From: an uncultured Bacillales bacterium
GTDB lineage: Bacteria > Bacillota_I > Bacilli_A > RF39 > UBA660
Direction of reading: 5' to 3'
NCBI GenBank assembly: GCA_948433085.1
Contig: CAOJDP010000003.1
Location: 5,787 to 69,786, forward strand
Length of the DNA stretch: 64,000 nt
Made by a program: the position numbers and the translations under genes. Every line of letters begins with the position of its first letter. Positions within the stretch are counted from its first letter, which is position 1. This document shows, one piece after another, positions 10,358-25,232 of this stretch. The notes under the pieces are model-generated. The model ran no database searches, was not told where the DNA came from, and worked only from the letters and a program-made list of their open reading frames with translations.

Positions 10358-10386
10358 TTGACAAATAATACAATTTATTATACAAT
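10358..10386 (+). promoter_or_regulatory. Sigma-A-like promoter of the glycopolymer locus
   Basis: TTGACA (10358-10363), 17 nt spacer, TACAAT (10381-10386), about 110 nt upstream of the first locus gene. Confidence 0.4.
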
Positions 10387-10497
10387 TTTAGGTAGAAAAG
10401 CCAAGCAAAAAATGGATTTATAAATAGTATATTAATAGAAGAATAAAAAACATTGGTAAATTACCTATTTAATTGTTTCGGTATAAGGAGAATGATT

Positions 10498-11112
10498 ATG
10501 TACAAAATAGTAAAGCGTATTATGGACATCATGGTTGCACTTATTTTTTCAATTATTTTGTTACCTATATTTATTATAATATTTGTTGCAATCAAAATAG
10601 AAGATGGTGGTCCTATTTTTTATCATCAAATTCGTACAGGAAAAAATGGAAAGAATTTTAAACTATATAAATTTCGCTCAATGAATGTGCTCCCATTGGA
10701 ATTAGAAATGACAGTACCACATAATCAAAGAATTACCAAAGTTGGTAAGTTTTTAAGAAAAACTTCAATTGATGAATTACCACAAGTTATTAACATTTTA
10801 AAAGGTGAGATGTCTTTGATTGGACCTAGACCTTGGAAAACAGAATATTATGAATTATTCACAGAGGAACAAAAACAACGCTGTGATGTCTTACCAGGAA
10901 TTACTGGATTAGCACAGTCGAAAGGTCGTAATGGGATATCTATTTTTGATAAAATTAAATATGATATAGAATATGCAAAGAATGTCAGTTTTAAAATGGA
11001 TTTACAAATTATATTGGATTCTATCGTAATTATTTTTAAAAGAGAACATGCTGAAATTATGCAAGAAGATATTAAAACAGAATTAGAACAGTTAAGTAAT
11101 CAAACATGTTAG
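10498..11112 (+). CDS. Initiating phosphoglycosyltransferase (bacterial sugar transferase, WbaP/CpsE C-terminal-domain type)
   Basis: Bac_transf signature: an N-terminal TM helix, FYHQIRTGKNGKNFKLYKFRSM, and DELPQVINILKGEMSLIGPRPW. AAGGAG RBS lies 7 nt before ATG 10498. Confidence 0.9.
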   Translation: MYKIVKRIMDIMVALIFSIILLPIFIIIFVAIKIEDGGPIFYHQIRTGKNGKNFKLYKFRSMNVLPLELEMTVPHNQRITKVGKFLRKTSIDELPQVINILKGEMSLIGPRPWKTEYYELFTEEQKQRCDVLPGITGLAQSKGRNGISIFDKIKYDIEYAKNVSFKMDLQIILDSIVIIFKREHAEIMQEDIKTELEQLSNQTC

Positions 11113-11125
11113 GAGAAATATATAT

Positions 11126-12307
11126 ATGAAACAAAAAGTATTGTTCTTAATTCATACACTAGGAGTAGGTGGAGCAGAGAAGGTGCTTGTTAATTTGGCA
11201 AATCATATGAGTGATACATATGATGTGACTGTAATGACTGTAATTGATACAGGCATTTTTAGAATGGAATTGAATCATCGGGTAACATATAAGACAATGT
11301 TTAAAATTCCTTTTTTAAAGAATCATAAAAAAGAAGAATCGGGAAGTTTGCTTGATAAAACAAGTAGAAAAAAGAAAATACTTGCCAAATGCTACTCTAC
11401 AATTTGGAAATATATGCCTACAAAAATATTATATTGGTTAAAAATTAAAGAAAAATATGATATAGAAGTTGCCTTTTTAGAGGGGATTTGTGCAAAAGTA
11501 ATTGCAGCTTCTAATCAACATTCAAAAAAATTTGCTTGGATGCATGTAGACATTATCAATGAAAATAAATCTGATGCGGTTTTTCGTAACCAAAAGGTTG
11601 CCAAATCTTGTTATGAAAAATTTGATAAAATAGTAGCTGTTTCAGAAGGTGTTCAAAAACAATTTATAAAAAAGTTTAATTACAATCCCAAAAAAGTTGT
11701 CGTAAAACATAATGCAATTAATACATCAGAAATTTTAAAAAAAGCAAATGAAAAACTTTCAATTAAAATTCCAAAAGAATTTAAATTGATAACAATTGGC
11801 AGATTGTCAAAACAAAAAGGATATGATCGTTTACTATCTGTTGTAAAAAAATTAAAAGATGATCATATTTTATTTCATTTATGGATACTTGGCGTAGGTC
11901 CAAAAGAACAAGAATTGAAACAATTTGTTATAGAAAATCAACTTCAGGATTGTGTGGAATTTTTAGGTTTTCAATCAAATCCATTTCCTTATTTGAAAAT
12001 AGCAGACCTATTTGTATGTTCTTCTCGCGCTGAAGGATTTAGTACAGTAGCCTGTGAAGCAACTGTGCTTGGAGTTCCCATTGTAACAACTGATTGTTCA
12101 GGAATGAAAGAATTATTAGGGGATAATGAATATGGATTGATTACAGATAATAATGAAAAGGCATTCTATATTGGATTAAAAGAAATTTTAACAAATTCTA
12201 AAAAATATAATCATTATAAACAAAAAATTCAAGAAATTAAAAATATGTTTGATATTGATGTATCTGTGAAACAAATTGAGGAAATGTTTGGTGATACAAA
12301 TGCATAA
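11126..12307 (+). CDS. GT4-family glycosyltransferase
   Basis: N-terminal GVGGAEKVLVNLAN and C-terminal EGFSTVACEATVLGVPIVTTD (E-X7-E region) are typical of GT-B/GT4 enzymes. Confidence 0.85.
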   Translation: MKQKVLFLIHTLGVGGAEKVLVNLANHMSDTYDVTVMTVIDTGIFRMELNHRVTYKTMFKIPFLKNHKKEESGSLLDKTSRKKKILAKCYSTIWKYMPTKILYWLKIKEKYDIEVAFLEGICAKVIAASNQHSKKFAWMHVDIINENKSDAVFRNQKVAKSCYEKFDKIVAVSEGVQKQFIKKFNYNPKKVVVKHNAINTSEILKKANEKLSIKIPKEFKLITIGRLSKQKGYDRLLSVVKKLKDDHILFHLWILGVGPKEQELKQFVIENQLQDCVEFLGFQSNPFPYLKIADLFVCSSRAEGFSTVACEATVLGVPIVTTDCSGMKELLGDNEYGLITDNNEKAFYIGLKEILTNSKKYNHYKQKIQEIKNMFDIDVSVKQIEEMFGDTNA

Positions 12308-13490
12308 TCTAAGAAAAGTTTTATTTATTGTTTACTTTTATTTATTTTTCTTTGTGATGTTCAATCGTGAATTTACTCCTTTTGGAATGGACTTTAGAAT
12401 AATCGTTGGATTCTTGGGTGTGATTTTACTTTTGCTAGGAATAAAAGATATCATTTTGAGAAAAAAAATACTAAAAGTAAAAACAATTGATTATTGTATT
12501 ATCGTCTTTTTTTGTTTATCTTTTTTAAGTAATATTGTATGGTTGTTTAATGGCCTTGAAATGCAAAAGCATCAATTTACTATTATTTTTATCTCATATG
12601 GTTTTAATTTTTTATCCTATTTAGTCTTCCGATTGTACCAAAAATATATTAGTGTGAGTCACTTAAAATATGCAGTCTTGTTTTCGATATTTGCTTTATT
12701 TTATAGTATACTAATTGCCTATATGGAAATTGATATACAGAAATATATAATGAGTGGCTGTCAGGGTTTTGTGAAAGATTTGTCTCCTAATTTTTTAGGT
12801 GGAATATACCGTTACAGTGGTTATGCGGAAGATCCAAATTATGCAAGTTTATTTTTTGTGTTAGCTTCTGCGACTTATATTTACTGTCAAAAATTGCAAA
12901 ATAAAAAAATAAATTATGCATATCTATTATTGTTTTTCCTTGGTATCTTATTATCTGCCTCTAAAACAATAATGGTTGCAATTATGCCAGCAATATGTTT
13001 TATATTACTTAAGAATTGTAAATTTACAGGTTTTCTTAAAAAAATATGGATTCCAGTAATTATTTTTATTCCCATTTTATTTATTCTAAGTGATTTTAAA
13101 TTATTTCATTCTATGATTACAATGAATCAACGGTTTCATATGTGGGAGTATGCATTGGATTTATTTAAACAAAGTCCAATAATTGGAAATGGGTTTACTG
13201 CTTTTCGTTCCTATGCTGTAACAGTAAATTGGTGGTATGTACAATGTCATAGCACAATTTTCCAAATGTTATCAGAAACAGGTGCGATCTCTTTATTGTT
13301 ATTCGCTATTATTTTAACAAAAAATTTGCTAATCAATAATAAATATTTAACTTTTGTGACTGTTTTATTTTCTATTTATATGATTACTACTGAAACTGCA
13401 TATCATGTATATTTTATTTTTATTTTGGCCATTTTACCAATTGTAGTAAAGGAGTGTGAATTATGGAAAAAGCAATCATCTTCCTCGTAA
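12300..13490 (+). CDS. Wzy-type polysaccharide polymerase / O-antigen-ligase-family membrane protein
   Basis: About 10 predicted TM helices with a large loop. It is embedded among glycosyltransferase genes. The start was chosen at in-frame ATG 12300 (GGTGA RBS) rather than the track start at 12276. Confidence 0.65.
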   Translation: MHNLRKVLFIVYFYLFFFVMFNREFTPFGMDFRIIVGFLGVILLLLGIKDIILRKKILKVKTIDYCIIVFFCLSFLSNIVWLFNGLEMQKHQFTIIFISYGFNFLSYLVFRLYQKYISVSHLKYAVLFSIFALFYSILIAYMEIDIQKYIMSGCQGFVKDLSPNFLGGIYRYSGYAEDPNYASLFFVLASATYIYCQKLQNKKINYAYLLLFFLGILLSASKTIMVAIMPAICFILLKNCKFTGFLKKIWIPVIIFIPILFILSDFKLFHSMITMNQRFHMWEYALDLFKQSPIIGNGFTAFRSYAVTVNWWYVQCHSTIFQMLSETGAISLLLFAIILTKNLLINNKYLTFVTVLFSIYMITTETAYHVYFIFILAILPIVVKECELWKKQSSSS

Positions 13491-14560
13491 ATTCTTTATC
13501 AAATGGTGGTGCAGAACGAGTCGTAAGCAATATGGCAAATGAAATGGCTAAAAACGGCTTAAAAGTTTTTATTTTAACTGTATATAATGATGTAACTTAT
13601 GATTTTCATGATAATATAGAGATTATAAGTTTATCGAAAAGGAAATTAAATAAATATAAGAAAATAGGTTATCTTCCTTTTTTGGTACATCGTTTGAATC
13701 AATATTTAAATCATATTTTTAAAAATTATGAGGTAAAACTTATTACATCCCATTTATTGTATTCTAATTTGTTAAGTCGACTATCGAAATATCGTCAAAA
13801 AACGATTCAAGTCGTACATATTCCATATCAGCCATATGATAAGCATAATCATTGGTTATTTCAAAAAGGAATTCAGTTTTTGTATAATCATACACCCATT
13901 GTGACTGTTTCAAATGGATGTATGCATGAATTATTAGATATTTACCATGTGAAAACTAAAAAAATTACGACGATTTATAATCCAATCAATTTATTTGAAA
14001 TTCAAAAAAAATCACAAGAAAAATTACAAATAAAAAAGCCATATATTTTGTTTGTTGGAAGATTGTCAGAACAAAAAAGACCTGAGCTAATGTTAGATAT
14101 TTTTTATCAGGGAAAGTTTTATGAAAATTATCATTTGTATTATTTAGGCACTGGACCTTTAGAGAAATCTTTACAAGAAAAAGTAAAAAATTTCCATTTA
14201 GAAGAATCTGTTACTTTAAAGGGATGGTGTTCGAATGTATATCCTTATATGAAATCTGCTTCTATATTAGTGAATACCTCATCTTATGAAGCATTTCCTA
14301 TGATTTTAATCGAAGCACTTGCTTGTAATTGTAAGATTGTTAGTTTTGATATTCCATATGGGCCAAATGAGATATTAAAAGATGATTTATCTTGTTATTT
14401 GGCAAGAAATCAAAATATAGAAGATATGATTCAAAAAATAAGGGATGCTTTGGTAGATTATCCCAATGTTTTAGAAAATAGAGTAAGGGATTTAGATGTT
14501 GCTCTTATAAATGAAAAATATATGCAAACTTATTTAGATTGGAATAATAAACATGGATAG
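13463..14560 (+). CDS. GT4-family glycosyltransferase
   Basis: SNGGAERVV N-terminus and a C-terminal EAFPMILIEALACNCKIVSFD motif. RBS AAGGAGTG upstream. Confidence 0.85.
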   Translation: MEKAIIFLVNSLSNGGAERVVSNMANEMAKNGLKVFILTVYNDVTYDFHDNIEIISLSKRKLNKYKKIGYLPFLVHRLNQYLNHIFKNYEVKLITSHLLYSNLLSRLSKYRQKTIQVVHIPYQPYDKHNHWLFQKGIQFLYNHTPIVTVSNGCMHELLDIYHVKTKKITTIYNPINLFEIQKKSQEKLQIKKPYILFVGRLSEQKRPELMLDIFYQGKFYENYHLYYLGTGPLEKSLQEKVKNFHLEESVTLKGWCSNVYPYMKSASILVNTSSYEAFPMILIEALACNCKIVSFDIPYGPNEILKDDLSCYLARNQNIEDMIQKIRDALVDYPNVLENRVRDLDVALINEKYMQTYLDWNNKHG

Positions 14561-15572
14561 AGTTAGTATTATTGTTCCTGTTTATAATAACGAGAATTAT
14601 ATTTTAAAGTGTATGAATAGTTTATTGAATCAAACTTATTCTAATATTGAAATTATTGTAGTAGATGATGGTTCTACTGATTCAACTTATGAAGTATTAA
14701 AGCAATATCAAAATGAGATAATTATTCTTCATCAAGATAATCATGGAGTATCTTATAGTCGAAATCGTGGAATGGAAGTAGCAACAGGTACTTATATTAT
14801 GTTTGTAGATAGTGATGATTGGATTGCACCTGATATGGTAGAAACTTTAATGAAAATGACAGAGAATGGCTCTATCGATATTGTTAGATGTGGTTATATT
14901 CGAGAATATCCTAAACATAAAGATACTTTTCAAATTTGTACAGAAAATTTAAAAATAATAGACAATAAGAATATTATTTATGAAATGTTTATCAAAGACT
15001 ATCGTTTGGCTTCTCCTTGTTGCCAAGTGATACATAAAAAATGTATCGAAACAAAATTTGATGAAACCATTCAAGTAGGAGAGGATTATTTATTTAATTT
15101 AGCACTTTATACACATGCCTCCTCTTTTGTTTTTTTAAAGGATGCCTATTATCATTATTTGTATAATTTTGAAAGTGCAACAACTAGTGTTGGTAGGAAA
15201 AAAATAGAAAAAAGATGTGAAGATGCACTCTTAGTATATTCTAAATTATATGATTATTTAAAAATTTGGAAGATAGAAAATAAGAAGAATATACAGAAGG
15301 TATCTTATCGTATTGTGAAAGAATTAAATATGAAATTACTTGCTTGTTTTCAAAACCATCACATGCCAAAAAAGGAACAAAAAAAATTAATGGATATTTA
15401 TTTTCATCATGTGTTATTAAAAGAAGCAAGAAAAAAATTATCAGTTGCTATGATTTTAAAGTATTTTCATATTTATACCTTATTTCTTCTTTGTTTAAAG
15501 ATGAATTTAAAGAATTTGTATTATATTTTAGGACGAACAATTTATTATACCTTATATTCCATTAAAAAGTAG
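14553..15572 (+). CDS. GT2-family glycosyltransferase
   Basis: SIIVPVYN...VDDGSTDST...FVDSDD (DXD) GT-A signatures. Translationally coupled to the upstream gene. Confidence 0.85.
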   Translation: MDRVSIIVPVYNNENYILKCMNSLLNQTYSNIEIIVVDDGSTDSTYEVLKQYQNEIIILHQDNHGVSYSRNRGMEVATGTYIMFVDSDDWIAPDMVETLMKMTENGSIDIVRCGYIREYPKHKDTFQICTENLKIIDNKNIIYEMFIKDYRLASPCCQVIHKKCIETKFDETIQVGEDYLFNLALYTHASSFVFLKDAYYHYLYNFESATTSVGRKKIEKRCEDALLVYSKLYDYLKIWKIENKKNIQKVSYRIVKELNMKLLACFQNHHMPKKEQKKLMDIYFHHVLLKEARKKLSVAMILKYFHIYTLFLLCLKMNLKNLYYILGRTIYYTLYSIKK

Positions 15573-15579
15573 GTGATTT

Positions 15580-16515
15580 ATGAAGGCATTGGTTTCTGTG
15601 ATTGTTCCTATTTATCGTGTAGAGTTATATATAGAAGAATGCATTGATTCTATATTAAATCAAACTTATTCCAATTTAGAAATTATTTTAGTTGATGATG
15701 GAAGTGATGATCGATGCCCTAGTATATGTGATGCATATCAAAAGAAAGATTCACGTATTCATGTAATTCATAAGGAAAATGGGGGATTATCTGATGCAAG
15801 AAATGTAGGCATTGATGTTGCCAAAGGGGACTATATTTGTTTTATTGATTCTGATGATGCGGTGCATCCTTGTTTTATACAAACTTTGTATGATGATTTA
15901 ATATCTACAAATTCTGATATAGCAATTTGTCATTATGAAAAGGTAGATAGGATTCCTGATATGATAGAATTTCAAGGAAAATTAAATCGAAATGTTTATA
16001 CGCAAACAGAACTTTTAAATTCTTTATATGGACCCGAAACATTATCTATTATTGTGGCTTGGAATAAGTTATATCGTAGACATATTTGGGAGCAATTGCG
16101 TTATCCTGTAGGGAAAGTGCATGAGGATGAATTTGTGATTCACTATATTTTAGATCAGGTAAATCAGGTCGTAATTAATGCAGGAACATACTATTATTAT
16201 CGGCAAAGGGAAGGTAGTATTACGAGTTGTTATAATGAAAAACGGTTACATGCATTAGAAGCATTAGAGAATCGAATTCAATTTTATCAAACTATCGCAA
16301 ACGAAACACTTGTCCATCAAACAATGTATCAATACTTTTTTATGATTATAAGACATATGAAACAAATGCGTAAGCAAAAGCAATTTACGGATTTAAAAAA
16401 GGAGTTACGAAAAAAACTTGGGTATTTATGGAAAAGTTTAATCATTTGTAAAGATATTCCATTTTTGAAAAAGATAAAATTAAGTCTTTATGGAATGAAA
16501 AGTAAAATGCTGTAG
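15580..16515 (+). CDS. GT2-family glycosyltransferase
   Basis: VSVIVPIYR...VDDGSDD...FIDSDD GT-A signatures. AGGTGA RBS. Confidence 0.85.
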   Translation: MKALVSVIVPIYRVELYIEECIDSILNQTYSNLEIILVDDGSDDRCPSICDAYQKKDSRIHVIHKENGGLSDARNVGIDVAKGDYICFIDSDDAVHPCFIQTLYDDLISTNSDIAICHYEKVDRIPDMIEFQGKLNRNVYTQTELLNSLYGPETLSIIVAWNKLYRRHIWEQLRYPVGKVHEDEFVIHYILDQVNQVVINAGTYYYYRQREGSITSCYNEKRLHALEALENRIQFYQTIANETLVHQTMYQYFFMIIRHMKQMRKQKQFTDLKKELRKKLGYLWKSLIICKDIPFLKKIKLSLYGMKSKML

Positions 16516-16526
16516 GAGGAATTTGT

Positions 16527-17552
16527 ATGTTATGTAAAGATTTGTTAAAAAAGTTTCTGTATGTATCTGCTTATAAAAGATATATAAGAACTTGTAAAAA
16601 AAGTGGTCAAAAAAAATATATTTTGTTTGGAACTCCAAAACATGGTAATATTGGAGATCATGCAATTACTTTAGCAGTGTATCAATTTTTTAAAGATATG
16701 GGAAAACAGATATTTGAGGTTTCTAGTTTTGATCGTAAATATATTTTACCTTATATGCAAAAACATATTAATAAAGAGGATATACTTATGATTAATGGTG
16801 GAGGATTTATGGGATCGCTTTGGATAGAGGAAGAAAAGATGATTCGTGATGTATTTTCCCATTTTTTATATCATAAAATCGTTATTTTACCACAAACTAT
16901 ATATTATAAAGAAGATTGTTTAGGGATGAAGGAAATGAATACCTCTTTTAAACTTTATAATGCACATCAAGATTTAGTTGTATGTACTAGAGAAGCTATT
17001 TCTTATCGATTTGCTTGTGAACATTTTAAAATGGCAAAAGTAATTTTTGTTCCTGATATGGTATTATACTACGATAATTTTTGGAGTGATGAAAATAGAA
17101 AGAATGTTCTTTTTTGTCTTAGAAGTGATTCTGAAAAAAGTGTACAAGAGGCAACCATACAAAATATCAAAAAAATTTTTAATCAAATCAATCAACAAAT
17201 TGTGTATACAGATACAGTTATTCATAAGGGAATTTCTAAAAAAGAACGCAATTCTGTTTTTATCAATAAGTTGCTTGAATTTTCAAAATATGAGATAATA
17301 GTAACTGATCGATTGCATGGGATGATTTTTGCAGCGTTAACGGAAACCCCATGTATTGTTTTAAGTAATTATAATTATAAAGTAAAAGGTGTTTATGAAT
17401 GGATTAAGGAGCTAGAATACGTTCGCTTTATAGAAGATGAAAGTCAATTAGAAAAAAATATTTTAGAATTATTATCACAAAAATTCCCACATCAAAAAAG
17501 AGTGTGTGATAAAACAAAGTTTGCAGAATTAATTACTTTATTTGAGGAGTGA
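16527..17552 (+). CDS. Polysaccharide pyruvyl transferase (CsaB/WcaK family)
   Basis: N-terminal GTPKHGNIGDHAITLA and a C-terminal DRLHGMIFAAL...PCIVL motif are typical of PS_pyruv_trans. AGGAGG RBS. Confidence 0.75.
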   Translation: MLCKDLLKKFLYVSAYKRYIRTCKKSGQKKYILFGTPKHGNIGDHAITLAVYQFFKDMGKQIFEVSSFDRKYILPYMQKHINKEDILMINGGGFMGSLWIEEEKMIRDVFSHFLYHKIVILPQTIYYKEDCLGMKEMNTSFKLYNAHQDLVVCTREAISYRFACEHFKMAKVIFVPDMVLYYDNFWSDENRKNVLFCLRSDSEKSVQEATIQNIKKIFNQINQQIVYTDTVIHKGISKKERNSVFINKLLEFSKYEIIVTDRLHGMIFAALTETPCIVLSNYNYKVKGVYEWIKELEYVRFIEDESQLEKNILELLSQKFPHQKRVCDKTKFAELITLFEE

Positions 17553-17556
17553 AAAG

Positions 17557-18645
17557 ATGGATAAAATAAAAAAATATATAGAGTGTTATATTCCAACAGA
17601 AACCTGTAATTTTAGGTGTCATTATTGTTATATTGCACAGCAGGGAAAGTTTAAAAATAAATTAGCAAAATTCATTAAAACACCTCAAGAAATCAGAGCT
17701 GCTTTTACAAAAAAAAGGCTAGGTGGAACTTGCCTCTTTAATTTGTGTGCAGGTGGAGAAACATTATTAGTAAAAGAGATTGTGGAAATTACGCGTCAAT
17801 TATTAGAAGAAGGACATTATGTTATGATTGTAACCAATGGGTCACTTAGTAATCGTTTTAAAGAGTTTGCTCAATTTCCAAAAGCATTATTACATCGCTT
17901 GATTTTTAAATTTTCTTTTCATTATATAGAGCTCAAGAAAATGAAATTGCTTGATCAATATTTTGATAATGTAAATTTAATGAAAAAATCAGAGGCTTCT
18001 ATTGTAGTAGAAATTACCCCAAATGATGAAACAGAAGAATATATTTCTGAAATCAAGGAAATTTGTATGGAAAAGCTAGGTGCTTTGCCACAAGTTACAA
18101 TTGCTAGAAATGATAATGATCGAAGAATTAGTCATTTGTCTAAACATAGTTTTGAAGATTTTGTCAAAATATGGAGTGCGTTCGATTCCCCCATGTTGGA
18201 TTTTAAATCAACAATATTTTATAAAAAAAGAAAAGAGTATTGTTATGCAGGGGATTGGAGTATTTATGTCAATTTAGTAACAGGGGAATATTCTCAGTGC
18301 TATTGTGGAATTCGTCTTGGTAATGTCTATGAAAATATTAATCAGCCACTCAAATTGATAGCAATGGGGAAGAAGTGTTCTTTACCACACTGCTATAATG
18401 GTCATGCTTTTATTACACTTGGAGATATTCCAGAATTAGATGCGATTACATATGCAGAGCTTAGAAATCGTATCAGTGGAGATGGGACTGAATGGTTGAG
18501 TAAAGAAATGAAAGAATTTATTGGTACGAAATTGTCAGAATCGAATTCTAAATATAGTAGTATTCAGAAAATTAGCAATGAAGTAAAAAGGTATGGAACA
18601 GCATTCAATAATCGAATCAAAAAAAGGAAAACAAAAGATAATTGA
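17557..18645 (+). CDS. Radical SAM enzyme with a C-terminal Cys-rich (SPASM/twitch-like) extension
   Basis: CNFRCHYC CxxxCxxC motif, a GGE-like CAGGETLL motif, and C-terminal cysteines (CYAGDW...QCYCG...CSLPHC). RBS GAGGAGTGA precedes ATG 17557. Confidence 0.8.
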   Translation: MDKIKKYIECYIPTETCNFRCHYCYIAQQGKFKNKLAKFIKTPQEIRAAFTKKRLGGTCLFNLCAGGETLLVKEIVEITRQLLEEGHYVMIVTNGSLSNRFKEFAQFPKALLHRLIFKFSFHYIELKKMKLLDQYFDNVNLMKKSEASIVVEITPNDETEEYISEIKEICMEKLGALPQVTIARNDNDRRISHLSKHSFEDFVKIWSAFDSPMLDFKSTIFYKKRKEYCYAGDWSIYVNLVTGEYSQCYCGIRLGNVYENINQPLKLIAMGKKCSLPHCYNGHAFITLGDIPELDAITYAELRNRISGDGTEWLSKEMKEFIGTKLSESNSKYSSIQKISNEVKRYGTAFNNRIKKRKTKDN

Positions 18646-18647
18646 TT

Positions 18648-20186
18648 ATGAAAAAGCAAATTTTAATTAATATTATTGCTAGTATTATTGCATTTCTTGT
18701 TCAAATGGTAATTAGTTTTGGTTTAACCCCAATATTGGTTAATTCATTAGGGGAAGATGCTTATGGATTTATTGGTTTGGCTAATAATTTTGTTACTTAT
18801 GCGACTGTTTTTACAGTAGCAATTAATTCCATTGCTGGTAGATTTATATCTATTGCGTATAATAAGGGAGAAATAGAAAAAGCCAATTCTTATTATTCTT
18901 CCTTATTTTTTGCAAATGCAATATTATCAATTGTCATATTTTTCTTATCTATTTTTATTACAATTGAATTACATAATATTATAAAAATACCATTTTCACT
19001 TAATTATGATGTTAAGATTACTTTTTTGCTTGTATTTATTAATTTTATATTTTCTTTGTTCCATGTTACTTTTCAAGTGGTACCGTTTGTAAAGAATAAA
19101 GTAAGTTTAGTATCTGTTGTAACAGCAGTTTCTAATATTTTAAAAGTTGCGATTATTTTATGTTTATTTTCATTATTTCAACCTAAAATTTATTATATTG
19201 CCATTGCGACTTTAGCTTATAGCACTATTTTATTAGTATTATGTATTTGTATTTCCAAAAAATTATCTTCTGAATTAAAGATTCATGTGCATTCTTTTGA
19301 TTGGAAATCAGTAAAAACTTTATTTGTTTCAGGTATTTGGAATTCTATTAATAATCTAAGTAGAATTATATTAGTTGGTTTTGATTTATTAATTGCAAAT
19401 ATATTTGTAGGATCTTATTCTATGGGAATTTTGTCAATTTCCAAAAATATTCCAAATGCAATTGATACTTTATTATCCACATTAGCAGTTGCATTTGTTC
19501 CTAGTATTACTATTTCGTATGCTAAAAATAGAATTCAAGATGTTATCTCTGAAATAAAATTTTCTATGAAAATGATTGCTTTATTAATGATTGTTCCAGT
19601 TGCAGGGTTTATTATTTTTGGAACAGACTTTTATAGATTGTGGTTACATAAGTCGATAGAAGAAGTAAAATTAATTCAATTGTTATCTGTTTTAACTTTA
19701 ATTCCCTATATGTTTAGTATTTGCAACTTTACATTACCAAATATTGATACGATAACCAATAAATTAAAACGGGCTTCTATTTTCACGTTGGCAATGAGCA
19801 TCGTCACTTTAATTACAGAAATTGTCGTTTTAAAGACGTCTGATTTAGGTGTAATTGCAATTGCAAGTGTTAGTTCCTTTTATTGGGTAATAAAGTTAGC
19901 AATCTTTAATCCGCTCAATGCAGCTAAAAATTTAAATGTAAAATGGTATACATTTTATCCTGATTTTTTAAAATCATTTTTCTGTTTTTGTCTTATTTTG
20001 ATTTTATATCTATTTTTGTATCAATATATGTCTATTACTTCTTGGAAGGATTTAATTCTTTCAGCAATACTTTTTGGTACGATTGGATATGTGATTAGTT
20101 TTCTTTTCATTTTAAATAAAAAAGAAAAAAATTGGGTTTATAACAAAATTTCCAGCCGTTTGCCGTTTGTAAACGGGGGGGGGTAA
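18648..20186 (+). CDS. Wzx-type oligosaccharide flippase (polysaccharide biosynthesis protein, MOP superfamily)
   Basis: About 500 aa with 12-14 TM helices, inside a glycan locus. It ends ...FVNGGG* on a G9 tract. The start was set at ATG 18648; the track begins at TTG 18642. Confidence 0.8.
   Translation: MKKQILINIIASIIAFLVQMVISFGLTPILVNSLGEDAYGFIGLANNFVTYATVFTVAINSIAGRFISIAYNKGEIEKANSYYSSLFFANAILSIVIFFLSIFITIELHNIIKIPFSLNYDVKITFLLVFINFIFSLFHVTFQVVPFVKNKVSLVSVVTAVSNILKVAIILCLFSLFQPKIYYIAIATLAYSTILLVLCICISKKLSSELKIHVHSFDWKSVKTLFVSGIWNSINNLSRIILVGFDLLIANIFVGSYSMGILSISKNIPNAIDTLLSTLAVAFVPSITISYAKNRIQDVISEIKFSMKMIALLMIVPVAGFIIFGTDFYRLWLHKSIEEVKLIQLLSVLTLIPYMFSICNFTLPNIDTITNKLKRASIFTLAMSIVTLITEIVVLKTSDLGVIAIASVSSFYWVIKLAIFNPLNAAKNLNVKWYTFYPDFLKSFFCFCLILILYLFLYQYMSITSWKDLILSAILFGTIGYVISFLFILNKKEKNWVYNKISSRLPFVNGGG
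20175..20183 (+). repeat. G9 homopolymeric tract (candidate slipped-strand phase-variation site or homopolymer error hotspot)
   Basis: GGGGGGGGG sits directly 5' of the Wzx stop TAA (20184-20186). It is unique in this AT-rich window. Confidence 0.9.
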
Positions 20187-20247
20187 AATTTTAATTGTTA
20201 TTGTTATCATTTTTAGTTTTCTATTTTTAATTCAAAGAAAAGAAAAT

Positions 20248-20979
20248 GTGCAATATATTCATTTTTCAGTAGATGACACCATTCTATTGTTTGCTGATTT
20301 AGAGCAAAATAAAGATGTGTATACTAGTATATTTGAGAATGCTACTTTAAAATATTTTCAAAGATTACATAAGCAGTATGGATTAAAAGTTACTTTTTAT
20401 TGTTTCTACGAATTTTCGAATGTTTCTTTAGAAAATATTACCAGTCAGTATCGGAAAGAGTTTGAAGAAAATTCTCATTGGTTACAATTTGGATTTCACG
20501 CTTATGATGCAGGAAGAGAATATGATAAAGATTCTTTCCATTATAGTATTACAAATGATTATCTAACTGTTATTCAGGCATTAGAAAATATTGTTGGAGA
20601 AAAAGCGATTAGCAAGCATTTACGATTAGAGAAATTTTCTTTAAATGAAGGGAATGCAAATTGTTTAAAAGATGTGGGAATTCAAATTCTATTTGGAAGT
20701 GATACTTTAGAAAAAAATAGTTATTATTTAAACAGTGAACAATCTTATCAGTTGTTTACCAAGGGTTATTATTATGATTGGAAAAAACAACTTCAATTTT
20801 ATAAAACGGATATTCGAATAGAGCAATCAAAAGGTGTAGAAGATATGATTCAGGATATAAAAGGAGATTCTTATTTAGTTATTTTTACACATGAATGGTT
20901 ATTGAGTGATTTATTAAAAGAAAAAATGGAATTACTCTTGAAACAATTGCAGAAATATAAATATCAATTTTCTATATAA
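20248..20979 (+). CDS. Hypothetical protein, possibly a divergent NodB/CE4-like deacetylase-type fold (weak)
   Basis: GTG start with a weak RBS. It contains HFSVDD and FHAYDAGREY motifs. The frame is open upstream back to 20173 and there encodes a hydrophobic segment KILIVIVIIFSFLFLI. Confidence 0.45.
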   Translation: MQYIHFSVDDTILLFADLEQNKDVYTSIFENATLKYFQRLHKQYGLKVTFYCFYEFSNVSLENITSQYRKEFEENSHWLQFGFHAYDAGREYDKDSFHYSITNDYLTVIQALENIVGEKAISKHLRLEKFSLNEGNANCLKDVGIQILFGSDTLEKNSYYLNSEQSYQLFTKGYYYDWKKQLQFYKTDIRIEQSKGVEDMIQDIKGDSYLVIFTHEWLLSDLLKEKMELLLKQLQKYKYQFSI

Positions 20980-21002
20980 AGTTGGTAGAAGTGAGGTTAG
21001 TG

Positions 21003-22022
21003 ATGAAGAAAGAAATTAAAGTCAAGTTTGTAGATTTTTACGACTCTTATAATCCAAAAGAACATTTTTTGTATCAAGCGTTGGAAAGAAAATACCATGT
21101 TGTTTTATCTGATAAACCAGATTATTTGTTCTTTTCTGTATTTGGTGATGAACATTTGCATTATGACTGTATTAAAATATTTTATACAGGAGAAAATTTA
21201 TGTCCAGATTTTAATTTATGTGATTATGCAATAGGTTTTGAATATTTAGAGTATCAAGACCGCTATATGCGTTTACCAAATTATTACCATCCAGCATATG
21301 CAAAAGATTTGAATGCTATGTTGAAAAGGACATCATTTACAGAAGAAGATTTAGTGCAAAAGGAAGGATTTTGTAGTTTTGTTTATTCCAATGGAAATGC
21401 AGATCCTATTCGTGAAATATTTTTTGAACAATTATCTCAGTATAAACAAGTTCATTCAGGGGGTAAATTTAAAAATAATATTGGTGGACCCGTAGCAGAT
21501 AAAATTGAATTTCAAAGAAAATATAAATTTTGTTTAGCTTTTGAAAATTCTTCCCATCCTGGATATACTACAGAAAAATTAATTCAAGCTTATGCTTCTA
21601 ATGCAATTCCAATCTATTGGGGAGATCCATTTGTGACGAAAGTGTTTAATGAAAAATCGTTTATCAATGTAGGTGCTTATAATACGATAGAAGATGCGAT
21701 TGCTTTTATTCAAAAAATAGATAGGGATGATTCGCTTTATTTGGAAATGATGCATGAATCGCCATTATGTGTAGAAGAAAATGTGATTGCATATAAAATG
21801 GATGAATTAAGTGCTTTCTTATCCAATATTATGGAGCAACCTTTTGAAAAAGCGAAACGTTATAATCGAGTATGTATTGGAAAAAAATATATTCAAAAAT
21901 TGAAATTATGGAACAAAGCATATGATAAAAAAATAAAAGTGCGAATGAAAAAATTTATATTTAAAATGAAAAAATTTAGGGTAAATGTATTGAAAAAATA
22001 TAGATTATTTGGATATAGATAA
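21003..22022 (+). CDS. GT10-family alpha-1,3-fucosyltransferase-like glycosyltransferase
   Basis: GT10 signature KYKFCLAFENSSHPGYTTEKLIQAY (FxLxFENSxxxxYxTEK) and a C-terminal basic amphipathic repeat region (KKYIQKLKLWNKAYDKKIKVRMKKFIFKMKKF). GTGAGG RBS before ATG 21003. Confidence 0.65.
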   Translation: MKKEIKVKFVDFYDSYNPKEHFLYQALERKYHVVLSDKPDYLFFSVFGDEHLHYDCIKIFYTGENLCPDFNLCDYAIGFEYLEYQDRYMRLPNYYHPAYAKDLNAMLKRTSFTEEDLVQKEGFCSFVYSNGNADPIREIFFEQLSQYKQVHSGGKFKNNIGGPVADKIEFQRKYKFCLAFENSSHPGYTTEKLIQAYASNAIPIYWGDPFVTKVFNEKSFINVGAYNTIEDAIAFIQKIDRDDSLYLEMMHESPLCVEENVIAYKMDELSAFLSNIMEQPFEKAKRYNRVCIGKKYIQKLKLWNKAYDKKIKVRMKKFIFKMKKFRVNVLKKYRLFGYR

Positions 22023-22127
22023 TCTATTTTTTTATAAGAATGAATATAAGATATAATAGGATTTTTTTAAAAAATCTTATTTCTAAAATTCAAGATATTT
22101 GTTTGTCCTTCTTAATACAAAAATTTA

Positions 22128-22158
22128 TTTTCCATTCAAGTAATGGAAAAATTTTTTT
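22128..22158 (+). terminator. Rho-independent terminator ending the glycosyltransferase operon
   Basis: 9 bp stem TTTTCCATT / AATGGAAAA with a 5 nt loop, followed by ATTTTTTTAT. Confidence 0.5.
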
Positions 22159-22310
22159 ATGTAATCTATATTTAGTTGAGTAGCAATTAAACATAAATTT
22201 TCCTTTTACAATTGAGAAATACATATGCGAATAAAAACTTTAAAAAATATTTAATTTTTGAAAACGATATGTTATAATAATCTTGTGAAGCTAGTAGAAA
22301 GAAGTGAATT

Positions 22311-23756
22311 ATGTCAAAGAAAAAAAATAAAAAAAATAGAATAATTGTGCAAAGAATTGGAACAGTATTATCTATTTTATTATTCGCAATTTCATTTGTA
22401 TTTTTTACAATGTTATTTCAGGTAAGTGTATTGCCAATGAAGTATCTTTTAATTGTTTTAGGAATTTATTTACTTGTTGTGTTGGGCTCTGTAGCAATTT
22501 TATTGATTCCAAAGATTAAAATAAAGTTAAAAATAGTAGTAGAGATTTTATCTACAATCATAATTATTTTTGTAAGTTTTATTTCATTTTATTTATATAA
22601 GACAATGGATTTTATGGGGAATATTAAAGCGAAAGATTATCAAATTGAAAATTATTATGTAGTTGTTTTAAAAGATAGTAAATACGAAACATTAGAAGAT
22701 TTGAAAAGTAAAACAATCGGGCTTCATCGGAGTAATTTGGAGAGTCAAAAAGATGCAATCGAAACGTTGAATAAAAAGCTATCTTATACAGATGAAGAAT
22801 ACGAAGATTTTATGAAATTAGGGAAAGATTTATTAGACAAACAAGTAGATGCGATATATATGAATGGTTCATATTTGTCCATTTTACAAGAAGAAAATGA
22901 ATCATTTGAAGAAAAAACAAAATTACTAGCAACAATAGAGTTACAAGTAAAAAATGAAACAGTAAAAAAAGATACAAATGTAACAAAAGAGCCATTTAAT
23001 ATATATATTAGTGGAATTGATACATATGGGGATATTTCTTCTGTATCAAGAAGTGATGTAAATATTATTGCTACGGTAAATCCTGTTACACATAAAGTGT
23101 TGTTAACTTCAATACCAAGAGATTACTATGTAAGACTTCATGGAACTACAGGCTATAGAGATAAGTTAACACATGCTGGAATTTATGGAATTGATATGTC
23201 AATTACAACATTAGAGGATTTACTTGATATTGATATCAACTATTATGTGAGAGTGAATTTTACTACTCTCATAGAACTTGTAGATGCAGTAGGTGGTGTA
23301 ACTGTGAATTCAGATTATAATTTTACTGCTATTTCAGGAGAAAAATTTATAAAGGGTGACAATATCTTAAATGGATCACAAGCACTTGCTTTTTCAAGAG
23401 AACGTCATGCATTTATAGATGGAGATCGTCAACGTGGCAAAAATCAACAAAAAGTAATTACAGCAATTATTAATAAAGCATTAAGCTCTACAACATTAAT
23501 TACAAAATATACGAATATATTAAATTCATTGCAAGATAGTTTTCAAACAAATATGGACAGTAATAAAATATATGATTTAGTGAATATGCAATTAAATAAA
23601 ATGCCATCTTGGCAAATTGAATCCATTAATTTAGATGGAACAGGAAAAAGTGAATTTACTTATTCTTATAGTGGGCAAAAACTATATGTAATGGAACCAG
23701 ATGTTAGTACGGTAAATGCAGCGCAAGCAAAAATAAATGAAGTAATAGGAGGGTAA
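22311..23756 (+). CDS. LytR-CpsA-Psr (LCP) family glycopolymer ligase with N-terminal multi-TM region
   Basis: LCP domain: NIYISGIDTYGD...NIIATVNPVTHKVLLTSIPRDYYV...VRVNFTTLIELVDAVGGVTV...FSRERH. Three to four N-terminal TM helices. Confidence 0.85.
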   Translation: MSKKKNKKNRIIVQRIGTVLSILLFAISFVFFTMLFQVSVLPMKYLLIVLGIYLLVVLGSVAILLIPKIKIKLKIVVEILSTIIIIFVSFISFYLYKTMDFMGNIKAKDYQIENYYVVVLKDSKYETLEDLKSKTIGLHRSNLESQKDAIETLNKKLSYTDEEYEDFMKLGKDLLDKQVDAIYMNGSYLSILQEENESFEEKTKLLATIELQVKNETVKKDTNVTKEPFNIYISGIDTYGDISSVSRSDVNIIATVNPVTHKVLLTSIPRDYYVRLHGTTGYRDKLTHAGIYGIDMSITTLEDLLDIDINYYVRVNFTTLIELVDAVGGVTVNSDYNFTAISGEKFIKGDNILNGSQALAFSRERHAFIDGDRQRGKNQQKVITAIINKALSSTTLITKYTNILNSLQDSFQTNMDSNKIYDLVNMQLNKMPSWQIESINLDGTGKSEFTYSYSGQKLYVMEPDVSTVNAAQAKINEVIGG

Positions 23757-23768
23757 CCTCCTTTTTTG
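23747..23768 (+). terminator. Rho-independent terminator after the LCP gene
   Basis: AGGAGG / CCTCCT stem with loop GTAA (which contains the stop codon), then TTTTTT. Confidence 0.5.
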
Positions 23769-23954: not shown

Positions 23955-25232
23955 ATGGCAGGTATCAAAATAAAATCTCATAAAGAAATGTCGAAAGATA
24001 GTTTTACAATTTATAATAAGCCAAAATACATTTATATTCCATTAATGGGAAGCAATGACCAAGATATTACAGTTTTCGTTAAAAAAGGAGACTATGTATG
24101 TAAAGGAGAAATGGTCGCTAGAAGAAAAGGTGCCTTTTCTATTCCTTTTCATACCAGTGTAAGTGGAACTGTAATTGGTTTTGAAGAAAAACTACATCAT
24201 AGTGGGACCTATGTCAGATGTATTAAAATTGAAAATGATTTGAAAGAGCGAGTAGAAGAATCACTAGAAATAAAAGAAAATTTATCCAAGGAAGAATTTA
24301 TTGAAACAATTAAAAATGCAGGAATTATAGGAATGGGGGGTGCAGGCTTTCCAACCTATATTAAATATCAAACCGATCAAAAAATAAAAACTTTAATTGT
24401 AAATGCAGTAGAATGTGAGCCATATATTACAGCAGATTATACTCTTGGAATTCAAAAAGCAGAAGCAATCTTAGAAACAATTGATCGAATAATGGAAATA
24501 AACGAAATTGAAAAAGCTTTTATTGCAGTTAAAAAAAACAATCAGCAATTCATTCAAGCTTTTCAATTTGTAATAGGTACTTATGTAAATATTGAAATTA
24601 AAATAGTGCCAGATTGCTATCCTATGGGATGGGAAAAAATGTTGGTAAAAACAATAACCAAAAAAACATATCAAAAACTTCCCATTGAAATTGGTGTAGT
24701 TGTAAATAATTTATCTACAATTTATGCAATACATCAAGCTTTAACAGGGATTCCACTCATTGAAAGAATAATTACCATTACAGGGGATTTGGTAAAAAAA
24801 CCACAAAATGTACAAGTAAAAATAGGAACTCCACTTCATGAAGTGATTGAAGCAATCAGTGGAATGAAACGTCATAAAGATGTTATTTGTATCGCAGGTG
24901 GTCCTATGATGGGGAATGCTTTAAAAGAAGATGATGTAATTGTGACAGCTGATTTGAATGGTCTGATTTTGTTAAAAGAAAAAGAGGAATGTAAGGAACA
25001 TACTTGTATGCGTTGTGGAAAATGTATAAATGTTTGTCCAGCAGGTATTGAACCAGTTCTTATCAAAGAATCATATCAAGATAAGGAACAATTAAATCGT
25101 TTGCAAGTTGGAAAATGTATTGAATGTGGTTTATGTTCTTATATTTGTCCAGCAAAAATAAATGTGAGAGAATATGTTAGAAAAGCGAAAAAGACTGTTA
25201 GAAAGGAGACTGCAAATGAAAGAATATCATGA
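23955..25232 (+). CDS. rnfC: Rnf electron transport complex subunit C
   Basis: NADH/FMN-binding GIIGMGGAGFPTYIKY and two 4Fe-4S motifs (CMRCGKCINVCP; CIECGLCSYICP). Confidence 0.85.
   Translation: MAGIKIKSHKEMSKDSFTIYNKPKYIYIPLMGSNDQDITVFVKKGDYVCKGEMVARRKGAFSIPFHTSVSGTVIGFEEKLHHSGTYVRCIKIENDLKERVEESLEIKENLSKEEFIETIKNAGIIGMGGAGFPTYIKYQTDQKIKTLIVNAVECEPYITADYTLGIQKAEAILETIDRIMEINEIEKAFIAVKKNNQQFIQAFQFVIGTYVNIEIKIVPDCYPMGWEKMLVKTITKKTYQKLPIEIGVVVNNLSTIYAIHQALTGIPLIERIITITGDLVKKPQNVQVKIGTPLHEVIEAISGMKRHKDVICIAGGPMMGNALKEDDVIVTADLNGLILLKEKEECKEHTCMRCGKCINVCPAGIEPVLIKESYQDKEQLNRLQVGKCIECGLCSYICPAKINVREYVRKAKKTVRKETANERIS

Follow-up and report, generated by a model that had tools for sequence, protein, structure and literature searches.

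A twitch-like radical SAM enzyme family associated with ketal pyruvyl transferases in bacterial polysaccharide loci

The window, i.e., the whole stretch of 64,000 nucleotides analyzed here, contains a polysaccharide locus in which a radical SAM enzyme (rSAM) is encoded between a pyruvyl transferase and a Wzx flippase. This raises the question of which reaction a radical enzyme could carry out in such a locus and with which of the neighboring enzymes it acts. The properties of the enzyme itself, the composition of the locus, and the contexts of its homologs are considered in turn.

Radical SAM core and auxiliary cysteines

The ATG of the rSAM gene is preceded by the ribosome-binding site GAGGAG at 17544-17549, and the stop codon of the pyruvyl transferase gene (17550-17552) sits between the two. 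The gene and its main motifs are as follows.

17557-18645, + strand: rSAM open reading frame of 362 amino acids; radical SAM enzyme of a pyruvyltransferase-associated, twitch-like family
17605..17628, + strand: CxxxCxxC (C17, C21, and C24, within CNFRCHYC), read from the sequence and kept in at least 330 of 332 homologs; predicted site of the SAM-cleaving [4Fe-4S] cluster
17731..17763, + strand: C59-x4-C64-A-G-G-E-T, the GGE SAM-binding motif with two conserved flanking cysteines, from the alignment of 332 homologs
18241..18393, + strand: twitch-like region C229-x13-G243-x4-C248 ... C274-x4-C279, with the four cysteines and G243 kept in at least 99% of 332 homologs

The GGE motif comprises residues 66 to 68 within CAGGET; among the 332 homologs, G67 and E68 are conserved in 100%, C64 in 95%, and C59 in 83%. 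The Pfam model Radical_SAM (PF04055) matches with an E value of 8.6e-11 and 42.7 bits (cut-off, 29.5), and the AlphaFold2 (AF2) model (pLDDT of 95.3) shows the partial TIM-barrel fold that, together with the GGE motif, marks radical SAM enzymes. The gene product is by these features a real radical SAM enzyme with predicted SAM cleavage, which bears out the core that the original prediction had read from CNFRCHYC. The conservation of C64 and C59 beside the GGE motif had been overlooked in that reading.

rSAM contains 12 cysteines in total, at positions 10, 17, 21, 24, 59, 64, 170, 229, 248, 250, 274, and 279. An earlier count of seven in the C-terminal 120 residues has to be corrected, as the three motifs quoted for it hold five (C229, C248, C250, C274, and C279, spanning residues 229 to 279), four of which are conserved. 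C229, C248, C274, and C279 are each present in at least 331 of the 332 homologs (≥99.7%), so that the auxiliary cysteine pattern persists on alignment; C170 and C250, found in 187/332 and 141/332 homologs, respectively, are variable. The SPASM signature (PF13186/TIGR04085) consists of Cx9-15Gx4C, Cx2Cx5Cx3C, and a final C, i.e., seven cysteines for two auxiliary clusters, whereas the twitch signature is the truncated form Cx9-15Gx4C on a β-hairpin following the barrel. rSAM lacks the seven-cysteine motif, having four conserved C-terminal cysteines with Cx4C as the second half, and its isolated C-terminal domain gives no match in Pfam or NCBIfam, SPASM models included, even at an E value of ≤10. 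The element C229-x13-G243-x4-C248, with all three residues conserved to at least 99%, does fit the twitch signature, and the AF2 model shows C229 and C248 on either side of a β-hairpin (residues 235-239/244-246) and C279 followed by a helix. This argues for a twitch-like domain with a candidate single auxiliary [4Fe-4S] cluster, for which C229, C248, C274, and C279 would be the ligands; alternatively, the four cysteines could form a structural metal site. The idea of auxiliary Fe-S clusters would apply in the form of one predicted cluster and not of a SPASM pair.

All NCBIfam matches of rSAM (viperin, STM4011, MoaA, QueE, and BlsE) are below threshold, and no curated family name could be given to the enzyme. 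PDB sequence searches with the single sequence and with a profile returned nothing significant. By fold, rSAM is closest to SPASM/twitch enzymes, with BlsE (PDB 7vob), the cytosylglucuronate decarboxylase/1,2-diol dehydratase of the blasticidin S pathway, as the top structural match at 11% identity. The BlsE family model TIGR04466 scores 15.9 bits where 400 are required, and the likeness is structural only. BlsE has been reported as a typical enzyme with a single [4Fe-4S] cluster (PMC3715490), in contrast to the four invariant extra cysteines of the rSAM family. Its substrate is a soluble nucleoside, and it belongs to an antibiotic pathway, whereas rSAM is encoded in a polysaccharide locus. 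The twitch dehydrogenases BtrN and SpeY show no significant sequence similarity to rSAM (E value of 0.15), differ from its Cx4C spacing in the downstream cysteines, and belong to aminoglycoside biosynthesis, unlike the putative glycan-tailoring enzyme beside a pyruvyl transferase described here. Compared with the SPASM enzymes anSME, SkfB, SuiB, and PqqE, rSAM has neither the seven-cysteine motif nor a second auxiliary cluster, and the peptide substrate, RRE domain, and precursor gene of the peptide-modifying members are missing. The only curated model that aligns near full length (residues 15 to 288) is STM4011 (NF038073), whose score of 36 bits, below the cut-off of 200, excludes membership and whose family is itself functionally uncharacterized. 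Viperin (NF038283) reaches 50.4 bits against a cut-off of 180 and covers only residues 14 to 99.

Maturases and cobalamin-dependent enzymes find no counterpart either. The 25 NCBIfam matches listed, of 27 with an E value of ≤0.01, include no anSME model, and none of the examined rSAM loci contains a sulfatase. rSAM begins at β-1 and has no B12-binding Pfam domain, the mark of B12-dependent methyltransferases. No PFL-like or Gly_radical gene lies beside members of the family in the loci, as would be expected for a glycyl-radical activase. One locus (L012) has a PFL gene ∼7 kb from rSAM, outside the glycan operon.

The glycan locus and the pairing with a pyruvyl transferase

The locus runs in one direction from the initiating transferase to a ligase.

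10453..11112, + strand: initiating polyprenyl-phosphate sugar phosphotransferase, at the head of the operon (PF02397, E 6.3e-62)
11126..15572, + strand: backbone assembly genes, GT4, Wzy-like polymerase (12276-13490), GT4, and GT2 (Pfam matches)
15580..16515, + strand: cassette GT2 glycosyltransferase (PF00535, E 2.8e-39)
16527..17552, + strand: Pvg1p-type ketal pyruvyl transferase (PyrT), conserved partner of rSAM (PF04230, E 3.7e-27)
18648..20186, + strand: Wzx flippase (Polysacc_synt, PF01943, E 3e-11), alternative TTG start at 18642
20248..20979, + strand: CE4/NodB-fold protein, putative de-N-acylase/esterase, accessory cassette member with no Pfam family
20982..22022, + strand: GT10 alpha-1,3-fucosyltransferase-like glycosyltransferase (PF18025, E 3.6e-36; PF00852, E 5.4e-23)
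22311..23756, + strand: LytR-CpsA-Psr ligase, last gene of the locus (PF03816, E 1.6e-38)

The first gene is closely preceded by the best promoter-like site (10358-10386), and a terminator-like hairpin (23747-23762) overlaps the 3' end of the last one. As originally stated, rSAM directly follows a pyruvyl transferase, whose PS_pyruv_trans match and stop codon are given above. The proposed overlap with the Wzx start depends on the start codon: the ATG at 18648 chosen by the gene callers leaves a 2-nt gap after the rSAM stop (18643-18645), while the TTG at 18642 would give a 4-nt overlap. With either start, the genes are closely spaced, and translational coupling is plausible.

PyrT aligns with Pvg1p of S. 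pombe (5ax7; phmmer E value of 2.7e-13), including the R/D/E and TDRLH motifs, and is by sequence a canonical transferase homologous to Pvg1p. The GT2 enzyme upstream shows 42 to 44% identity to the GT2 domains of GT2-PyrT fusions in four species loci (L018, L056, L037, and L038) and probably adds the sugar that is then pyruvylated. Modules of a glycosyltransferase and a pyruvyl transferase, which add a terminal sugar and then pyruvylate it, are described elsewhere (PMC4616057, PMC6801904). The Klebsiella K loci, the PSA locus of B. fragilis (WcfO), CsaB of P. alvei, and Pvg1p resemble the window in this respect but have no radical SAM enzyme; here, the module has rSAM as an additional, conserved member.

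The contexts of rSAM were sampled in 80 species loci with flanks of up to 8 kb. rSAM and PyrT are same-strand neighbors in 63/80 loci and fused in one more (together 64/80), and a further 11 loci contain PyrT within the fetched flank. The remaining loci are two with weak matches only and three with none; one of the former (L045) has a PS_pyruv_trans match above the Pfam cut-off and one of the latter (L073) a sub-threshold match, while the flanks of a Blautia locus (L028) contain no pyruvyl transferase. Both gene orders occur, with rSAM before PyrT in 37 loci and PyrT before rSAM in 26, and the pair is found in Wzx/Wzy as well as ABC-transporter pathways. At least 24 of the best 150 representatives at 50% identity are rSAM-PyrT fusions, in either order and including GT2-PyrT-rSAM. 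Examples of natural fusions are P0121 and L053:6801-9095. The mirror-tree correlation of rSAM with PyrT is 0.70, compared to 0.50 with Wzx or GT2. The pyruvyl transferase, treated as an incidental neighbor in the original prediction, is instead the defining, near-obligate partner of the rSAM family. Rare fusions of rSAM to methyltransferases, an SGNH hydrolase, GT-D, or GT2 indicate that the partner is not exclusively a pyruvyl transferase.

The members of the usual cassette are an exporter (either Wzx or Wzm/Wzt), in some cases a CE4-like hydrolase, and then rSAM, the pyruvyl transferase, and GT2. An exporter adjoins rSAM in most loci; the Wzx cluster found in the window does so in 30 and lies within two genes in 38 of 81 loci (the 80 species loci and the window). 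In some proteins, the CE4-like domain is fused to rSAM or to the C terminus of Wzx. The hypothetical protein encoded downstream of Wzx in [Eubacterium] eligens falls outside the CE4-like family. All of the ∼90 contexts examined are polysaccharide loci; synteny outside glycan loci, which would mark a housekeeping radical SAM enzyme, was not encountered among them, and rSAM holds as a component of the glycan locus.

Related pyruvyl transferases are carried on 109 plasmids, chiefly of lactic acid bacteria, and an L. plantarum plasmid cluster for exopolysaccharide (EPS) contains a related GT2-PyrT module (36.8% identity) without rSAM. A search for rSAM across plasmids found it only in E. eligens, with no homolog on any plasmid of lactic acid bacteria. 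The existence of such rSAM-free modules indicates that rSAM is an add-on step. A flavoprotein similar to FrhB was considered as a general third partner and rejected, since FrhB-like genes occur in only 2/80 loci; together with one rSAM-Fer4-FrhB-PyrT fusion (P0255), these may provide a few lineages with a dedicated reductase. Full-text literature searches turned up no account of rSAM being paired with pyruvyl transferases, and a 2019 review of glycan pyruvylation names no radical or Fe-S partner (PMC6801904).

Proposed role and competing explanations

The near-constant pairing points to an undescribed radical step in the decoration of cell-surface sugars. The reading favored here, with a probability of roughly 55%, is that rSAM is a glycan-tailoring enzyme, dedicated to partnership with the ketal pyruvyl transferase, that acts on the pyruvylated sugar before export. 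In this mechanism, at the cytoplasmic face of the membrane, the cassette GT2 would extend the undecaprenyl-PP-linked repeat unit by a terminal or side-chain sugar, and the Pvg1p-type transferase would then place a PEP-derived pyruvyl group on this sugar. Reductive cleavage of SAM at the C17/C21/C24 cluster would generate the 5'-deoxyadenosyl radical, which would take a hydrogen from the pyruvylated sugar, either from a ring C-H beside a ketal oxygen or from the pyruvyl group itself. The single auxiliary [4Fe-4S] cluster predicted at C229/C248/C274/C279 could take up or give back an electron. The modified unit would finally pass to the adjoining exporter, Wzx in the window and Wzm/Wzt in other species. 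The position of rSAM beside the exporter in most loci and the fusions of the CE4-like domain to rSAM or Wzx suggest cytoplasmic action just before export.

Substrate and product are both read from gene context alone. The substrate would be lipid-linked and already pyruvylated, and the first choice for the outcome is an oxidation or rearrangement of the pyruvylated sugar, e.g., by dehydrogenation to a keto sugar or by radical ketal ring-opening to a 1-carboxyethyl ether. By analogy with BlsE, a dehydration or decarboxylation may be considered next, followed by a possible epimerization with C64/C59 as the hydrogen donor. No precedent for radical SAM chemistry on pyruvate ketals was found. A more specific version is put forward only tentatively, with the odds against it: an undescribed radical chemistry on the pyruvyl substituent of the lipid-linked glycan, by abstraction of a hydrogen beside the ketal and subsequent ring-opening to a 1-carboxyethyl (lactyl) ether plus keto sugar or by oxidative or C-C-forming remodeling of the ketal, would yield a class of acidic surface-glycan decorations specific to strict anaerobes of gut and rumen, through a mobile cassette of exporter, CE4-like protein, rSAM, PyrT, and GT2 common to at least seven phyla.

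rSAM varies far less than PyrT, Wzx, or GT2, with a mean p-distance of 0.49 compared to 0.71 to 0.74, which fits recognition of a constant moiety. Such conservation also suits a constant small-molecule substrate, and rSAM could act earlier, on a soluble nucleotide sugar or PEP-derived donor, to supply an unusual sugar or donor to GT2 or PyrT. The closest structural relatives (BlsE, viperin, MoaA, and DesII) use soluble nucleosides or nucleotides, with a nucleoside sugar acid as the substrate of BlsE, the top match; in HMM comparisons, the N terminus is most similar to the nucleotide users viperin, MoaA, and QueE; and fusions of the types rSAM-GT2 and GT2-rSAM occur. These HMM similarities are, however, limited to the generic cluster- and SAM-binding N terminus and lie far under the cut-offs (50 versus 180 bits), and PyrT, not a glycosyltransferase, is the main partner in fusion and adjacency (24 versus 2 to 3 fusions). 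Nucleotide-sugar pathway genes do not accompany the cassette, and characterized pyruvyl transferases use lipid-linked or polymeric acceptors (PMC6801904). Action at the precursor level is considered unlikely. Action on the newly added sugar before pyruvylation, with an oxidation or epimerization creating the diol geometry or functional group required by PyrT, is quite improbable: a sugar altered in this way would be of use even if it were not pyruvylated, but the family nearly always has PyrT, and the strong conservation of rSAM relative to the acceptor-specific GT2 and PyrT is unexpected if a variable sugar is recognized. This order of events would agree with the sugar and cyclitol dehydrogenase activities of the twitch enzymes BtrN and SpeY, with conserved C64 and C59 as possible hydrogen donors in epimerization, and with the occurrence of both gene orders.

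Radical SAM enzymes can also act on proteins; anSME matures sulfatases, and activases mature glycyl-radical enzymes. A corresponding posttranslational modification of PyrT or the CE4-like protein by rSAM is very unlikely. The residues conserved to at least 88% in 60 rSAM-adjacent pyruvyl transferases all occur in at least one of two unpaired homologs from lactic acid bacteria, and nearly all are also present in Pvg1p, a proven stand-alone enzyme, which leaves no cysteine, serine, or glycine target site specific to the paired enzymes. Maturation of PyrT was rejected on this basis and on that of the rSAM-free L. plantarum module; the absence of rSAM homologs from the plasmids of lactic acid bacteria and the lack of glycyl-radical enzymes in the loci likewise speak against a maturase. 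Hardly any weight can be given to a maturase of a ribosomal peptide or cofactor that merely happens to lie in the glycan locus, although the fold neighbors include the peptide maturases SkfB, SuiB, PqqE, and EpeE. The N terminus starts directly at β-1, without an RRE or other extension, peptide-maturase HMMs come nowhere near their cut-offs, and the contexts across at least seven phyla are all polysaccharide loci. The earlier remark that no precursor-peptide gene is visible nearby agrees with the tightly packed operon, which leaves no room for one; its small intergenic open reading frames are only low-complexity junk.

Distribution and significance

The rSAM family comprises 1,927 matches among clusters at 90% identity and 336 clusters at 50% identity with an E value of <1e-30. 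The description of such enzymes as rare in polysaccharide loci fits the literature; in genomes, they are not rare. Carriers were found almost exclusively among metagenome-assembled genomes and isolates of anaerobic habitats, gut and rumen included, and the 80 species with sampled loci span at least seven phyla. A link of the family to the 1-carboxyethyl sugars of Butyrivibrio EPS is conceivable; no Butyrivibrio-named homolog is among the matches listed, and no usable paper connecting the family to these sugars was found.

Pyruvylated glycans are key surface epitopes, as in PSA of B. fragilis, the cell-wall polymers that anchor SLH domains, and Klebsiella capsules. To our knowledge, their biosynthesis has been thought to need only the PEP-dependent transferase. 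Across hundreds of anaerobic lineages, from gut, rumen, and other habitats, a strongly conserved radical SAM enzyme accompanies this transferase, often as a fusion, which implies an additional, oxygen-sensitive modification step that is so far uncharacterized. The analysis defines this large family and provides a concrete, testable hypothesis for its substrate. If the tentative pyruvyl radical chemistry is correct, it would represent a new class of acidic surface-glycan decoration in strict anaerobes of gut and rumen. The cultured carrier [Eubacterium] eligens ATCC 27750, prevalent in the human gut, encodes rSAM as EUBELI_RS11775 (NC_012780.1, 260568-261677) and allows the chemistry, as well as its influence on recognition by host or phage, to be tested directly. 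A fold and a genomic context are now also assigned to the CE4-like family, which has no Pfam entry.

The radical SAM gene and the fold of its product

The radical SAM gene is intact, with 362 codons, and lies in a glycan operon with the following features:

10358-10386, best promoter-like site
10453-23756, glycan operon, from the initiating transferase to the end of LytR-CpsA-Psr
15580-16515, GT2 glycosyltransferase
16527-17552, pyruvyl transferase (Pfam PS_pyruv_trans), upstream of the radical SAM gene
17544-17549, ribosome-binding site GAGGAG of the radical SAM gene
17557-18645, +, radical SAM gene
18648-20186, Wzx-type flippase (Pfam), downstream of the radical SAM gene
23747-23762, terminator-like hairpin

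The stop codon of the pyruvyl transferase gene (17550-17552) falls between the GAGGAG site and the radical SAM ATG, and the Pfam match confirms the predicted position directly after a pyruvyl transferase. The predicted overlap of the radical SAM stop with the Wzx start depends on the start codon: TTG 18642 gives an overlap of 4 nt, and ATG 18648 leaves a gap of 2 nt.

The enzyme carries CxxxCxxC at C17/C21/C24 and a CAGGET (GGE) motif and scores 42.7 bits against Pfam Radical_SAM (gathering score, 29.5), which bears out the radical SAM core of the original prediction. Of its 12 cysteines, the C-terminal third contains five (C229, C248, C250, C274, and C279), not the seven first counted. The auxiliary pattern itself is upheld on the HMM alignment of 332 full-length homologues, with C229, C248, C274, and C279 each present in at least 331, a conservation equal to that of the SAM-cluster triad. 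C64 (95%) and C59 (83%), beside the GGE motif, are also conserved; C250 (141/332) and C170 (187/332) are variable.

SPASM and twitch domains open with the signature Cx9-15Gx4C, which the conserved C229-x13-G243-x4-C248 fits exactly. In the predicted model, this segment brackets a β-hairpin, and a helix follows C274-x4-C279. The seven-cysteine SPASM pattern is not present, and the isolated C-terminal domain shows no match to SPASM HMMs even at an E value of ≤10. We therefore take the protein to be a remote member of the twitch-like radical SAM enzymes, bearing a single four-cysteine auxiliary site; of the suggested SPASM/twitch-like C terminus, the twitch part stands and the SPASM part does not. 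We infer that this site holds an Fe-S cluster.

Profile searches place the enzyme in the superfamily, with every curated subfamily model below its cut-off; no NCBIfam model comes near its own. Viperin scores best (50 versus 180 bits, N terminus only), followed by STM4011 (36 bits; cut-off, 200) and BlsE (16 bits; cut-off, 400). PDB sequences give no significant match with phmmer or a 98-sequence profile. Structural comparison of the predicted model yields scores of 14.9 for anSME, 14.7 for SkfB, 14.3 for MoaA, 14.0 for viperin, and 13.8 for SuiB, with lower scores for BtrN (11.1) and SpeY (10.1); Foldseek ranks these neighbours identically, with TM scores of ∼0.5. Assignments to the BlsE, anSME, viperin, STM4011, SPASM-HMM, and B12 families were rejected, each failing a defining test. 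The enzyme belongs to the radical SAM superfamily and probably resembles twitch/SPASM-type tailoring enzymes in its mode of action. Residues 335 to 362 (18560-18645) form a long Lys/Arg-rich C-terminal helix, variable in sequence and constantly basic across homologues, possibly a tail that binds Und-PP or sits at the membrane interface.

Distribution and pairing with a pyruvyl transferase

The family comprises 1,927 matches among 90%-identity clusters and 1,371 in an exhaustive 50%-identity library (336 with an E value of <1e-30), labelled at source only as "radical SAM protein" or generic activase. With each GTDB species represented by a single genome, 119 species carry it, of which 80 loci were fetched as a context sample covering Clostridia, Bacilli, Bacteroidales, Akkermansia, Fibrobacter, Helicobacter bilis, Synergistaceae, Desulfuromonadales, Kiritimatiellia, and Bifidobacteriaceae.

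An HMM built from the pyruvyl transferases of the fetched loci shows the two genes directly adjacent on the same strand in 63/80 loci, with the radical SAM gene first in 37 and second in 26. They are fused in one locus, and 11 further loci carry the transferase elsewhere in the retrieved flanking DNA (at most 8 kb). The match is weak in two loci, one of which (L045) scores above the PS_pyruv_trans cut-off on Pfam inspection, and absent in three, one of which (L073) has a sub-threshold PS_pyruv_trans-like N terminus on a neighbouring giant glycosyltransferase. Independent metagenomic contexts agree, including an ABC-transporter (Wzm/Wzt) locus with reversed gene order. Both domains occur in one protein in at least 24 of the best 150 cluster representatives, with the layouts radical SAM-pyruvyl transferase, the reverse, and GT2-pyruvyl transferase-radical SAM. 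Adjacency in both orders, with two export pathways and in different phyla, together with frequent fusion, assigns the enzyme on genetic grounds to the pyruvyl transferase step. A literature search found no published description of this pairing, and the family is rated as uncharacterised and widespread, with a specific, previously unnoticed functional partner.

One metagenomic representative (P0255; 1,305 amino acids) has the order radical SAM-Fer4-FrhB-pyruvyl transferase, in which the ferredoxin and FrhB-like flavoprotein parts might reduce the radical SAM cluster from within the same polypeptide; FrhB-like genes are otherwise rare (2/80 loci). FkbM or class-I methyltransferases, SGNH, GT-D, GT2, and Polysacc_deac_1 are fusion partners once or twice each.

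Unbiased clustering of all neighbouring ORFs recovers a recurring cassette that starts with an exporter (40 loci with Wzx and 24 with Wzt), followed by a CE4-like protein without a Pfam family (about half of the loci) and then by the radical SAM enzyme, the pyruvyl transferase, and GT2. GT2-pyruvyl transferase fusions adjoin the radical SAM gene in several genomes, and the GT2 in the window is 42 to 44% identical to their GT2 domains. Wzx proteins are usually very divergent; those beside the cassette form one BLAST cluster in 40/81 loci compared. Wzx seems to be inherited together with the pair, a pattern compatible with an exporter specific for the modified sugar. Eight loci (L059, L066, L070, L072, L075, L077, L082, and L084) contain a second, tandem paralogue with HMM scores of 260 to 380, versus 470 to 650, and all eight carry the CE4-like protein, versus 39/80 overall.

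Modules of a glycosyltransferase and a pyruvyl transferase are well known from Klebsiella K loci, Bacteroides fragilis PSA, CsaB, and Pvg1p (PMC6801904, PMC4616057). None of these has a radical SAM enzyme, in contrast to the present cassette. Homologues of the transferase (33 to 37% identity) lie on plasmids of Lactiplantibacillus plantarum, Pediococcus, Leuconostoc, and Weissella; the L. plantarum plasmid inspected has GT2 and the transferase in an EPS cluster without the radical SAM gene, and the Pediococcus copy lies outside any glycan cluster. Only two plasmids carry the radical SAM gene, both from [Eubacterium]/Lachnospira eligens. The radical SAM enzyme is therefore an add-on, confined to strict anaerobes. 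The cultured strain [Eubacterium] eligens ATCC 27750 shows the same arrangement of glycosyltransferase, pyruvyl transferase, radical SAM gene, and Wzx on a 627-kb replicon, inside a CpsB/Wzz/CpsD capsule locus (NC_012780.1, 248577-273677; L093). Its exact protein sequence occurs on 151 public contigs, and this prevalent human gut species offers a ready experimental model.

Proposed tailoring step and its alternatives

Mirror-tree correlation with the radical SAM enzyme is 0.70 for the pyruvyl transferase versus 0.50 for Wzx or GT2. The enzyme is far more conserved than all three (mean p-distance, 0.49 versus 0.71 to 0.74), which suggests that what it recognises is an invariant group and not the glycan, which varies; the obvious candidate is the pyruvyl group. 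Its position beside the exporter and the accessory domain fused to it or to Wzx both suggest that it works on the lipid-linked unit on the cytoplasmic side, immediately before export. Together with the pairing, these features favour, with a probability slightly above one-half, a sequence in which GT2 adds a sugar, the transferase pyruvylates it, and the radical SAM enzyme then abstracts hydrogen from the resulting pyruvylated sugar, the putative auxiliary cluster handling the electron. The outcome might be dehydrogenation, analogous to BtrN and SpeY; BlsE-like dehydration or decarboxylation; epimerisation via C64/C59; or radical ketal ring-opening to a 1-carboxyethyl ether and a keto sugar. 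The last is our own chemical reasoning, and we found no precedent for it. Action on a soluble precursor instead is unlikely, and action before pyruvylation slightly more so.

The partner in the window is homologous to Schizosaccharomyces pombe Pvg1p (E value, 2.7e-13), with aligned HxNxGD, GGG, RxDxE, and TDRLH motifs. Positions at least 88% conserved in 60 radical SAM-adjacent copies are all kept in one or both of two unpaired lactic acid bacterium homologues, and nearly all in Pvg1p. By these alignments it is a canonical ketal pyruvyl transferase, and the comparison therefore reveals no paired-specific residue usable as a modification target. This counts against a protein maturase acting on the transferase, which is improbable; a RiPP maturase is more improbable still.

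Wider operon and window

Further features in the window are as follows:

9306-10154, +, PD-(D/E)XK transposase-family gene, between uvrA and the glycan operon start
20982-22022, +, GT10 α-1,3-fucosyltransferase-like gene (FucT_N and Glyco_transf_10), same operon
25174-26661, +, Rnf operon ORF with an RnfD-type domain (NQR2_RnfD_RnfE) and a C-terminal FMN_bind domain

The GT10-like gene suggests that the surface glycan is fucosylated and possibly mimics host glycans. The transposase-family gene may delimit a polysaccharide locus that is mobile or variable; its GC content equals that of its flanks (∼27 to 29%). A GC content of ∼28% throughout and the Rnf complex after the glycan locus fit an anaerobic Firmicute of very low GC content. 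Function-assigned ORFs (6.4 to 31.3 kb) are all on the plus strand, as are most other ORFs of >100 amino acids. GC skew is positive throughout positions 1-64000 (+0.15 to +0.31), which makes it probable that the window belongs to the leading strand of a single replichore. The ORF at 25174-26661 is apparently an RnfD-RnfG fusion, and its called start overlaps the preceding RnfC gene by ∼59 nt.
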